In this document: piece after piece, positions 3,001 through 6,000 of the stretch
Numbering within the stretch: the stretch's first letter is position 1
Layout: the number at the start of each line of letters is the position of its first letter
IMG/VR virus record: IMGVR_UViG_2519899560_000004
Coordinates: 1 to 6,437 of that record
From: a virus
Lineage: Duplodnaviria > Heunggongvirae > Uroviricota > Caudoviricetes
DNA length: 6,437 nucleotides
Reading direction: 5' to 3' (one strand)
Position numbers: made by a program

Positions 3001-6000
3001 CGGCTTCCCACCAACTCAGCGATTTCAATGCTTGTCATTTTGATGGCATTGCTATTTATCAGCTCATTCATTGTCATGTCCTCTCACATTGAAAATTCAG
3101 CAATAAAAAACCCAGCCGAAGCTGGGTTTGTTAAGTTGTCAATTGTCAGTAGCGATGCAGTGAAGGCGGCAACTCTTTGTTCTTAAGCCTTTCCCATGCC
3201 AGAAGGTTCGTCGGCCCGTCAGGCTCATAAATATCTATATCCCGCGTGTGATTAATTAAAACGCCCCTCGCCCTCCCGATGATATACGAGAACTCATAGC
3301 CGTAGTCGTGGCATATGCCGGAATAGCCAGACTGAATCAGTTTTAATGCGGGATACAACTCACGGAACAATGCCTGTGAGCGGTTGGCATAATCCCACAG
3401 CCATACAAGGCTGTCTGTTTCTTTTGCGGAAAGCCCGTTGAGCTTCTTCTCTTGTTTGCCAGTATTTTTCTCGCACTGGCTGAAATAGCAGTCTTCCAGT
3501 TTTTCGAACACATCCCACGCCTGATCAGTTTCGAGCATTTTTGCGTGACGGGCTGCGCCGCGTTCTGTCCAGAGGATGAGGGAGCGGGCATTTTTACCAA
3601 CTAACCCGATTGTTTCGGGTCTGTTCTTAAACTCGCGTAATTCGTTTTTTTCAATTTTAAAGTAATGCTTTCCGGGCATGAATCGCGTCGTGTTGTTCAG
3701 AAAGTTATCAGAAATGTTTTTGATTTTTGTTCCGTAAAGGTGAGCCAACAGTTCAGTAGTAATTACGGGGATCTGGTTATAGGTAACAGGGGAAAGGTTT
3801 TCGACAGAAATTTGAACAGCCATAATGACCTCGCGTTTCGATTATTTTTACCTCGCCACCGTCAGGTGCTAATCATCGTGGTGGCGAACTGTGCGGGGTT
3901 AGCACTACCGGTCGAAACATCCGGCGAGCCTTTCGGCTCCCCCACACAGCCCGCCATAAATCGCGAATGTGACTGTGCTTAGCGCATAAAAAAACCGCCA
4001 GCGCGGTTATGCACCGTTTCGATATCCGGGGTGCTAATCCCGACGCCAGATTTTGCTGGCGCGTGAGGAATATAGCCCCGAATAAATCATCGCGTCAATC
4101 ACCTTGTTTTCCTCGCACGATGTCTTAGCCACCGGATATCCCACAGGTGAGCCGTGTAGTTGAAGGTTTTTACGTCAGATTCTTTTGGGATTGGCTTGCG
4201 TTTATTTCTGGAGCGTTTCGTTGGAAGGTATTTGCAGTTTTCGCAGATGATGTCGGTGATACTTCGTCGCTGTCGCCTCATGCAGCCCTCCTGACGCCCA
4301 GCCCGATCGCCATCAATGCCGCTTTGGATACGGTAGTAAACATCCGTCGAGGACTGATGAACGGTCGCCAAATCAGCAACATTGAGCCTTTGCTGTTTCC
4401 CTTCTTCTCCAGCCCTGTCGATGGTTCGATAAAATTAATCCGTCCATCAGTGATGATGCGAACTTCGTCAACACTCTCCAGAGCCTTGCTGAACCATCCG
4501 ACTGACATATCCTCTGGCACAAGCATAACTACCGTCTGTCGCTGTTGTATGCACTGCTCAGCGGCTTTTTCCACCCACGGCCTGATATTGCTGTACGGTG
4601 GGTTATTCCAGATTGCACCGTGGCTTACCCACTCAGAATTGAGCGCGTCGTCGGCCTCAGTTAGCCAGTGAGCACACAGAGCATTTTTGTCGCTCGCTGC
4701 CGAATCCAGCCAGAATCCAAACTCAATATCCAGTGCATCAAAAAGCCAAAGCGGCGTTTGCCAGCAGTCCTTGTTGTGTGCTGGCGTATTTGATTTGATA
4801 GTCATGCAGCCCGATCTCCCCATCGCGCTTTCATTTTTTCATTTGCAAATCGCCAGAATCTTCCTTTGTGATATGAGCTTTCGCCATTACAGCAACGACT
4901 AATTGACGAACTATCAAATCCTTCTCTGACAGCATCCATAGCTGCTTCATAATAAACCTCCTCCCCAGTTTTCATGTCAGTAGAAATAACAGCTTTACTG
5001 GCAGGATGGTCACCACTAAATTTACCTAGCGATATAGGTATTCTTCCATTTTGTTTATATCCGTGTTTTGAGTTTTCAGAATGTGATACCCATTCAAGGT
5101 TATCAGCCCTATTGTCATCTCTTCGCCCATTTTTGTGATTAACTACCAAGCCATCACAGAACCCTGTACAGAATGCTTTCGCAACTATCCTGTGGGCGCT
5201 GTATTTCTTACCGTATACCTTTATTTGAAGATATCCTGTCGACTTGCACTTGAATGGTTTTACACTAGTGCCATTAATTATTTTCTTATATGGCCTCTGT
5301 CTGGTTGATGTTACTGTAACTTCCCTCGTAATAGACCTGAAATTTCCTTTATTGCTAACCTGATAAAATGGAATCCCTTCGATATCTACCCAAACCTCAA
5401 TCATAATTCCTCCATTCGCTAAGATGAATTGAGTTCATGGCACAATATGCTTCTATGTAGTCCATTATTTCGGATATTTTTTTTACAGATAGAGTCGCCG
5501 TACTCTCTCTGATGTTTATTAGCTCACCTTCTAACCCTGATATAATCTCAGGGTGCTGGTTGGTTGCAATCTGCCAACCAGAAACGAATAACCCCTTCCA
5601 AAACTCAATATTTCTTGCTTTTCCGTGATATGTAGCCTTCTTACTTATTTCAGATAGCATCGCGTGAAGGCGTGCATTTTGCCGAATGCTGCGGTTGCGT
5701 TCCTGAATGGTTACTACGATTGGTTTGGTTGGGTCTGGAAGAATTTGCTGGATAGCTTGAATGGCGTTCTGCTGATGGATGGGGCTTCTTAGTTCAAATG
5801 TTAGTTTCCTCATCACCCTTAATCCTCTCGAAGTTCTTCTCGAAGTTTTTGGTGTCGAACACTGACCACCGACCATTATGAATGGCGTATGCACATGTCT
5901 TGTTTTCGTCCTGATAAACCACCCTTACCTTGCGATAAAACCGTGGCTTAATCTCTCTGAATATTTGCTCGCTCATGCTCACTCCTTCACTTTAAATCCA

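Follow-up and report, generated by a model that had tools for sequence, protein, structure and literature searches.

The dam gene that a lambdoid phage of the Stx type carries in its nin region is very probably the standard orphan adenine methyltransferase gene of such regions, and the HNH endonuclease gene directly upstream of it a later insertion that forms no functional pair with the methyltransferase. The DNA analyzed comprises 6,437 nucleotides (positions 1 to 6,437 of the IMG/VR record IMGVR_UViG_2519899560_000004; this whole stretch is called the window). Every sizeable open reading frame (ORF) in it lies on the minus strand. The genes and the motif central to the analysis are the following.

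Positions 5397-5813, minus strand: ninB (Orf), variant allele (PF05772, E 2.5e-40).
Positions 4802-5404, minus strand: free-standing, homing-type HNH endonuclease ORF of 200 amino acids with NUMOD4, HNH_3 and I-HmuI NUMOD-like domains.
Positions 4278-4805, minus strand: dam, phage N6-adenine DNA methyltransferase of 175 amino acids, M.EcoVT2Dam type.
Positions 4593-4604, minus strand: NPPY codons of dam (residues 68-71), catalytic motif IV of amino-methyltransferases, read from the sequence.
Positions 4099-4281, minus strand: ninE (PF05322, E 8e-44).

The initial annotation had proposed a Dam-like adenine methyltransferase at positions 4278-4805, and profile searches agreed with this assignment and identified an N6-adenine methyltransferase. 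The product matched PF05869 (Dam) with 216.3 bits against a cut-off of 28.1 and covered positions 1-166 of the 169 in this profile. With TIGR01712, the NCBIfam equivalog for phage N-6-adenine-methyltransferase, it reached 264.7 bits against a cut-off of 97.05. Comparison with Dam of VT2-Sakai (orf32, NP_050531) revealed 173 of 175 identical residues (99%). Both substitutions, D11N and Q169L, are located at variable alignment positions, and the protein of phage Lahn2 differs from the window Dam by one residue only. The VT2-Sakai enzyme has been named the orphan M.EcoVT2Dam and described, with reference to Radlinska and Bujnicki (2001), as 'known to target 5'-GATC-3'' (PMC6602927). Judged from the 99% identity and this reported specificity, the window Dam would methylate the adenine in GATC.

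An alternative is that the specificity of Dam is relaxed or directed to a sequence other than GATC, comparable to the non-specific enzymes M.EcoGII and Hia5, and that the protein acts as a broad anti-restriction device. Broad-specificity adenine methyltransferases of phages and prophages do exist (PMC5778455, PMC3299994), and the 175 residues of Dam are modeled without a separate target-recognition domain. However, M.EcoGII is a beta-class enzyme of 349 amino acids, the enzymes described by Drozdz (Hia5 and relatives) belong to the alpha class and neither is a member of the Dam family, while GATC specificity is reported for the 99%-identical M.EcoVT2Dam (PMC6602927). Moreover, methylomes of Shiga toxin-producing E. 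coli with two copies of the gene displayed no extra adenine motif that could be ascribed to it, although the prophage genes may be silent there (PMC6602927). We consider relaxed specificity very unlikely. A link of Dam to M.EcoGII and Hia5 was considered and rejected because the enzyme classes differ; T1, HP1 and VT2 are absent from the Drozdz paper.

GATC sites themselves are about two-fold under-represented in the whole window, with 12 observed and 24-27 expected. None occurs in the 1.6 kb that precede dam (4817-6437) and comprise ninB, HNH and the region beyond. GATC-poor stretches in prophages have been mentioned before (PMC6602927).

When the window protein was aligned with 27 homologues of 59-85% identity, N68, P69, P70 and Y71 of the NPPY motif proved invariant, as did about 45 further positions. 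Among the latter, L33-D34-x-A36 is a candidate for motif I, which would bind S-adenosylmethionine (AdoMet); residues 34-37 have values below 50 in the predicted local distance difference test (pLDDT) of the structure model. The AlphaFold2 model of Dam, with a mean pLDDT of 78.9, displays the class I Rossmann-like fold of AdoMet-dependent methyltransferases. It suggests that the protein is essentially a bare Rossmann-fold catalytic domain that lacks a separate target-recognition domain. A sequence search of the PDB for a solved structure of Dam gave chance matches only (E of at least 0.25).

No restriction enzyme gene was found among the ORFs of the window, in line with the earlier statement that no cognate enzyme is visible. 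In most genomes dam is flanked by just ninB and ninE, and the best PADLOC models for the protein are those of orphan methyltransferases (oMTase). Dam is an orphan methyltransferase without a restriction endonuclease gene in the same module.

The dam ORF codes for 175 amino acids with the N-terminus MTIKSNTP. Its ATG (4805-4803) shares the sequence ATGA (4802-4805) with the TGA stop codon of HNH (4804-4802), and the sense strand reads ...GGGGAGATCGGGCTGCATGACTATC at this junction. An upstream ATG at 4823, which would give the longest ORF, was rejected as start codon, since in phage 933W a TAG closes the dam frame three codons ahead of the ATGA. Both family profiles (Pfam and TIGR) start at residues 2-4 of the 175-residue form (MTIK). 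Together with the in-frame TAG of 933W, this supports 4805 as the start of dam. A second ATGA overlap joins the stop codon of dam to the start codon of ninE (4278-4281) behind a strong Shine-Dalgarno (SD) sequence, AGGAGG.

The initial annotation had described the ATGA overlap between HNH and dam and had suggested that the signal descends from the stop codon of ninB; sequence comparison bears out both points. The 27 nucleotides preceding the dam ATG (4806-4832, minus strand) encode KARWGDRAA and match the 3′ end of HK140 ninB at every position. Relative to the lambda ninB tail, 3 of 27 nucleotides are different, and the nine encoded residues are the same. An identical ATGA overlap is present at the ninB-dam junctions of HK140 and 933W and at the ninB-ninC junction of lambda. 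In the window, the remnant forms the last nine codons of the HNH ORF and contains an SD-like GGGGAG (4816-4821) as well as one GATC (4813-4816). More distant HNH homologues from Salmonella phage SEN22 and Enterobacter phage MII_001 end natively with ...ERMAA* and lack the ninB tail, which argues that the E. coli HNH ORF reads through into the remnant of a displaced ninB.

Several variants of the ninB tail occur among HNH copies. Successive nin genes end with ...(R/E)AA* and a common GC(N)GCATGA motif, also in lambda, 933W and HK140. On the minus strand of the window, GGGCTGCATGA is found both at the junction of HNH (ninB tail) with dam (4802-4812) and at the dam-ninE junction (4278-4288), and GCCGCATGA at the ninG-ninH junction (1744-1752). 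These short conserved linkers may be module-exchange points of lambdoid mosaicism.

The HNH ORF was previously regarded as being of the homing type, and its domain content is as expected for such a nuclease. It contains NUMOD4 (E 1.4e-13), HNH_3 (E 2.4e-11) and an I-HmuI NUMOD-like domain, and it matched the PADLOC model for homing endonucleases (HEase) with an E value of 1.1e-26. As expected of a free-standing homing endonuclease gene, it occurs only sporadically, and the genes on either side of it are conserved.

Alignment with HK140 and JM3.2 showed that the window ninB departs from the lambda-type gene after codon 42 (approximately position 5687). It overlaps the start of HNH by 8 nucleotides. 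The 3′ portion of ninB and HNH constitute one cassette of low GC content at approximately 4833-5687, where the GC content is 36-42% compared to about 50% in the flanks; the drop spans positions 4830-5690. The edges of the cassette are marked by a conserved block of about 54 nucleotides in the 5′ part of ninB and by the 27-nucleotide lambda-type ninB tail. In 62 phage records with variable flanks, the coding sequence of HNH is 100% identical, consistent with a recent spread by homing or gene conversion. The divergent 3′ two-thirds of ninB are present in 65 phage records, which are in essence those with HNH, and the divergent allele lies upstream of HNH in 28 of 31 IMG/VR loci. By these comparisons, the constant partner of HNH is the divergent low-GC ninB allele upstream and not dam. 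The cassette seems to behave as free-standing homing endonuclease genes do, and the diverged ninB allele to which it is linked is presumably resistant to cleavage.

The close association of HNH with ninB also allows a different view, in which HNH is not a selfish gene but a partner of NinB (Orf) in phage recombination, with Dam still an unrelated neighbor. HNH always comes after the same ninB allele with the 8-nucleotide overlap, and fusion proteins of NinB and HNH have been described in phages of Gram-positive bacteria (PMC2034487, PMC4118853). In contrast, the set of NUMOD4, HNH_3 and I-HmuI NUMOD-like domains and the HEase match are typical of homing endonucleases. HNH is sporadic among otherwise near-identical prophages and low in GC, its sequence is invariant in the 62 records despite variable flanks, and a second, unrelated HNH/AP2 ORF occupies the same junction in one IMG/VR contig. 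A role as NinB partner is therefore unlikely, and insertion as a homing-type cassette remains the preferred explanation.

In IMGVR_UViG_2703719355_000002, the second HNH-like (HNH/AP2) ORF (positions 2600-3127 of that contig) separates dam from the first HNH. Read from the ATG at 2600 (the longest form starts at 2582), it opens with the first nine codons of dam (MTIKSNTPA) and then diverges, and the dam gene behind it has acquired a new N-terminus, MIKHKSETPKEVRDCWQTP... On the basis of this ORF and the altered dam N-terminus, nuclease genes seem to have landed repeatedly at the ninB/dam junction, where they make use of the start and stop signals of their neighbors.

As HNH and dam are adjacent and overlapping, a pairing of the two gene products had been suggested in the initial annotation. 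They could form a restriction-modification-like system or a methylation-gated homing module, in which methylation shields the carrier genome or tunes cleavage. The ATGA overlap would lead to co-translation, dam is the most frequent gene downstream of HNH, and a GATC is located in the retained ninB tail near the junction (4813-4816). The distribution of both genes was examined in phage records with at least 95% nucleotide identity to dam and, with a combined dam and HNH query, in 5426 complete E. coli genomes. The dam gene was present in 244 phage records, where the annotated upstream gene was mostly ninB, and only 62 records covered the order ninB-HNH-dam. In E. coli, 1578 genomes matched the query, nearly all of them via dam. 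HNH was found in 76 genomes and was joined to dam in 61 of these; about 1500 genomes carry dam without HNH. Altogether, dam is preceded by ninB without HNH in approximately 75% of the dam-bearing phage records and 96% of the dam-bearing E. coli genomes.

Conversely, HNH occurs without dam. It lies directly upstream of ninC in phage APC_JM3.2 (3 amino acid differences), of ninE in strain ETEC1720 and of ninD in SEN22, and HNH proteins with 98-100% amino acid identity to that of the window are encoded ahead of ninC, ninE and ninD. In the complete genome of APC_JM3.2 no Dam homologue was found (best tblastn E value 0.5). The gene following HNH in the 31 IMG/VR loci is dam in 19, ninE in seven, ninD in two, ninC in one and an unidentified gene in one; in the remaining locus dam lies past a second inserted ORF. 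Within the 2-kb flanks examined, 11 of the 31 loci contain HNH without dam. Co-inheritance as in type II restriction-modification systems is thus missing in both directions, given HNH without dam in APC_JM3.2, ETEC1720 and SEN22 and the many dam copies without HNH.

Further points argue against a functional pair. The same Dam allele is present in phages with and without HNH, and the host Dam methylates GATC as well, so that methylation cannot distinguish self from target, or donor from recipient. The GATC in the ninB tail, the candidate for a methylation switch, is not conserved and is missing in several HNH copies. In addition, PADLOC places the two proteins in different classes, orphan methyltransferase and homing endonuclease. 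The comparative data contradict the suggested pairing, which we regard as highly improbable, and HNH and Dam appear to be accidental neighbors. A weaker form of the idea, according to which phage Dam methylation during lytic growth modulates cleavage or homing by the adjacent HNH without being required for it, with the ninB-tail GATC as candidate site, is extremely unlikely; if true, the frequent adjacency of HNH and dam would reflect selection rather than clonal sampling.

All these results favor an orphan Dam with an independently inserted HNH gene. Transcription of dam would start with that of the other nin genes at pR, as a delayed-early cistron after N-mediated read-through of tR2, a terminator that the annotation of phage Lahn2 (99.3% identical) places just upstream. 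Between ninB and dam no promoter-like site was detected on the minus strand, and the counts of the scan equaled the expectation from shuffled sequences. The dam orthologue of phi24B is transcribed, and its level changes significantly on prophage induction (PMC3342100).

Overlaps of stop and start codons are found at seven of ten gene junctions of the window operon, three of them in the ATGA form, and both ends of dam (4802-4805 and 4278-4281) show this arrangement of coupled cistrons. The weak SD sequence GGGGAG is positioned 10 nucleotides upstream of the dam ATG. Given an ATG that overlaps the upstream stop codon behind a weak SD sequence, termination-reinitiation coupling is likely: ribosomes ending the upstream cistron would reinitiate at the overlapping dam ATG, helped by this SD sequence. 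The cassette of divergent ninB 3′ portion and HNH would have replaced most of a lambda-type ninB and left its last 27 nucleotides in frame. For that reason the HNH ORF would end at the old ninB stop codon and dam would keep its original start context.

The HNH/dam junction of the window (4776-4875, minus strand) is predicted to fold with a z-score of -3.7. In this structure, pairing of the HNH codons CUGGCGAUUUG with codons 5-9 of dam, CAAAUACGCCAG, would enclose the dam start, with the SD sequence in a hairpin loop. The folds of the ninB/dam junctions of HK140 and 933W and of the HNH/ninC junction of JM3.2 were not significant in comparison to shuffled sequences. We give little weight to this folding as a sign of an occluded dam start.

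Once produced, Dam would methylate replicating phage DNA at N6 of the GATC adenine, with AdoMet as the methyl donor. It may keep fast-replicating phage DNA fully methylated at GATC when the host Dam is limiting, and full methylation would avoid the action of MutH or SeqA and GATC-directed, methylation-sensitive restriction. Protection from host restriction is a plausible role of Dam.

Some points weigh against this interpretation. First, dam is the commonest gene after HNH (61 of the 76 E. coli genomes with HNH, 19 of the 31 IMG/VR loci), and the bias could in principle reflect selection and not clonal sampling of Stx prophages from O157 and O121 strains. Second, the GATC specificity is that reported in the literature for a 99%-identical protein. 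Third, coupling is deduced from geometry; the spacing of 10 nucleotides between SD sequence and ATG is long but usable, so that independent initiation is possible. Finally, as we know of no knockout phenotype of a phage dam gene, its biological role can only be inferred. The role of phage Dam enzymes has been described as still poorly understood (PMC7556043).

Positions 4000-6000 of the window share 99.3% identity with phage Lahn2 and 99.2% with about 60 Stx2a prophage records. The four genes are annotated there as NinB, HNH endonuclease (or ORF200), DNA methyltransferase and NinE. The remaining genes of the operon are listed below.

Positions 5987-6202, minus strand: DUF7301 ORF.
Positions 5794-5976, minus strand: ORF of 60 amino acids.
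Positions 3146-3823, minus strand: antirepressor gene (ant) with ORF6N/P22_AR_C.
Positions 2349-3077, minus strand: roi-like gene with ANT domain.
Positions 1744-2349, minus strand: ninG.
Positions 1553-1747, minus strand: ninH.
Positions 1180-1614, minus strand: Q.

Downstream of Q, Lahn2 carries the tRNA genes ileZ-argN-argO; the window has instead an ORF of 197 amino acids (455-1048, minus strand) with DnaD_N and HTH_36 domains. ARAGORN detected no tRNA genes in the window. The gap of 275 nucleotides between ninE and the antirepressor gene contains three Rfam matches above the gathering score (3877-4075, minus strand).

Positions 3877-3961, minus strand: C4 antisense RNA (RF01695, 75.1 bits).
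Positions 3988-4062, minus strand: isrK (RF01394, 76.6 bits).
Positions 4023-4075, minus strand: c4 a1/b1 target element (RF03163, 50.6 bits).

The same strand also carries a promoter-like site at 4098-4069 and, at 4016-3993, a terminator-like hairpin. The RNAs look like an RNA switch of the P1/P7 immI type or the Gifsy-1 IsrK type ahead of an ORF6N/P22_AR_C antirepressor.

The methyltransferase is a characterized and very common prophage gene, and the order ninB-HNH-dam-ninE is already deposited and annotated in Lahn2, P27, Stx2-86 and many Stx2a prophages of O121 and O157 strains. The locus matters little as a discovery, and the comparative data go against a link between methylase and HNH. 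It does illustrate clearly how a homing-type nuclease cassette can insert between two genes of a tightly packed operon: the nuclease ORF runs on into the end of the gene that it displaced, and the next cistron thereby keeps its probable translational coupling. A further point of value is the methylase family itself: a minimal GATC methylase of 175 amino acids that lacks a target-recognition domain and for which no structure is detectable by sequence.

Among known systems, type II restriction-modification systems likewise have adjacent and co-oriented genes for a nuclease and a methyltransferase. Unlike in these systems, HNH and dam each occur without the other, the nuclease belongs to the homing type and the methylase is an orphan. 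Free-standing HNH homing endonucleases of phages (I-HmuI-like; mob/seg of T4) share the NUMOD4/HNH_3/NUMOD-like architecture with the window HNH, which like them is placed between two conserved genes, occurs sporadically and is linked to a diverged flanking allele. In contrast to them, the window HNH is a putative homing endonuclease, and its reading frame continues into 27 nucleotides of the displaced gene. The Dam proteins of the E. coli host and of T4, both alpha-class GATC methyltransferases, have no detectable sequence similarity to the window Dam; they are larger, have a dedicated target-recognition domain and belong to a different motif class. The Dam methylases of phages T1 and HP1 are small phage-encoded N6-adenine methyltransferases of the same Pfam family, presumably with much lower identity to the window Dam and in another genomic context. 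Similarity to the HP1 and T1 methylases is also noted in the 933W record for the methylase of that phage. The closest counterparts are M.EcoVT2Dam and its orthologues (933W L0094, phi24B, HK140, HK97, SfI and others), which are orphans of the same length and family (PF05869/TIGR01712), occupy the same position in the nin region and are followed by ninE with the same ATGA overlap. M.EcoVT2Dam differs from the window Dam by the two substitutions and by its upstream neighbor, which is ninB itself, compared to HNH in the window.

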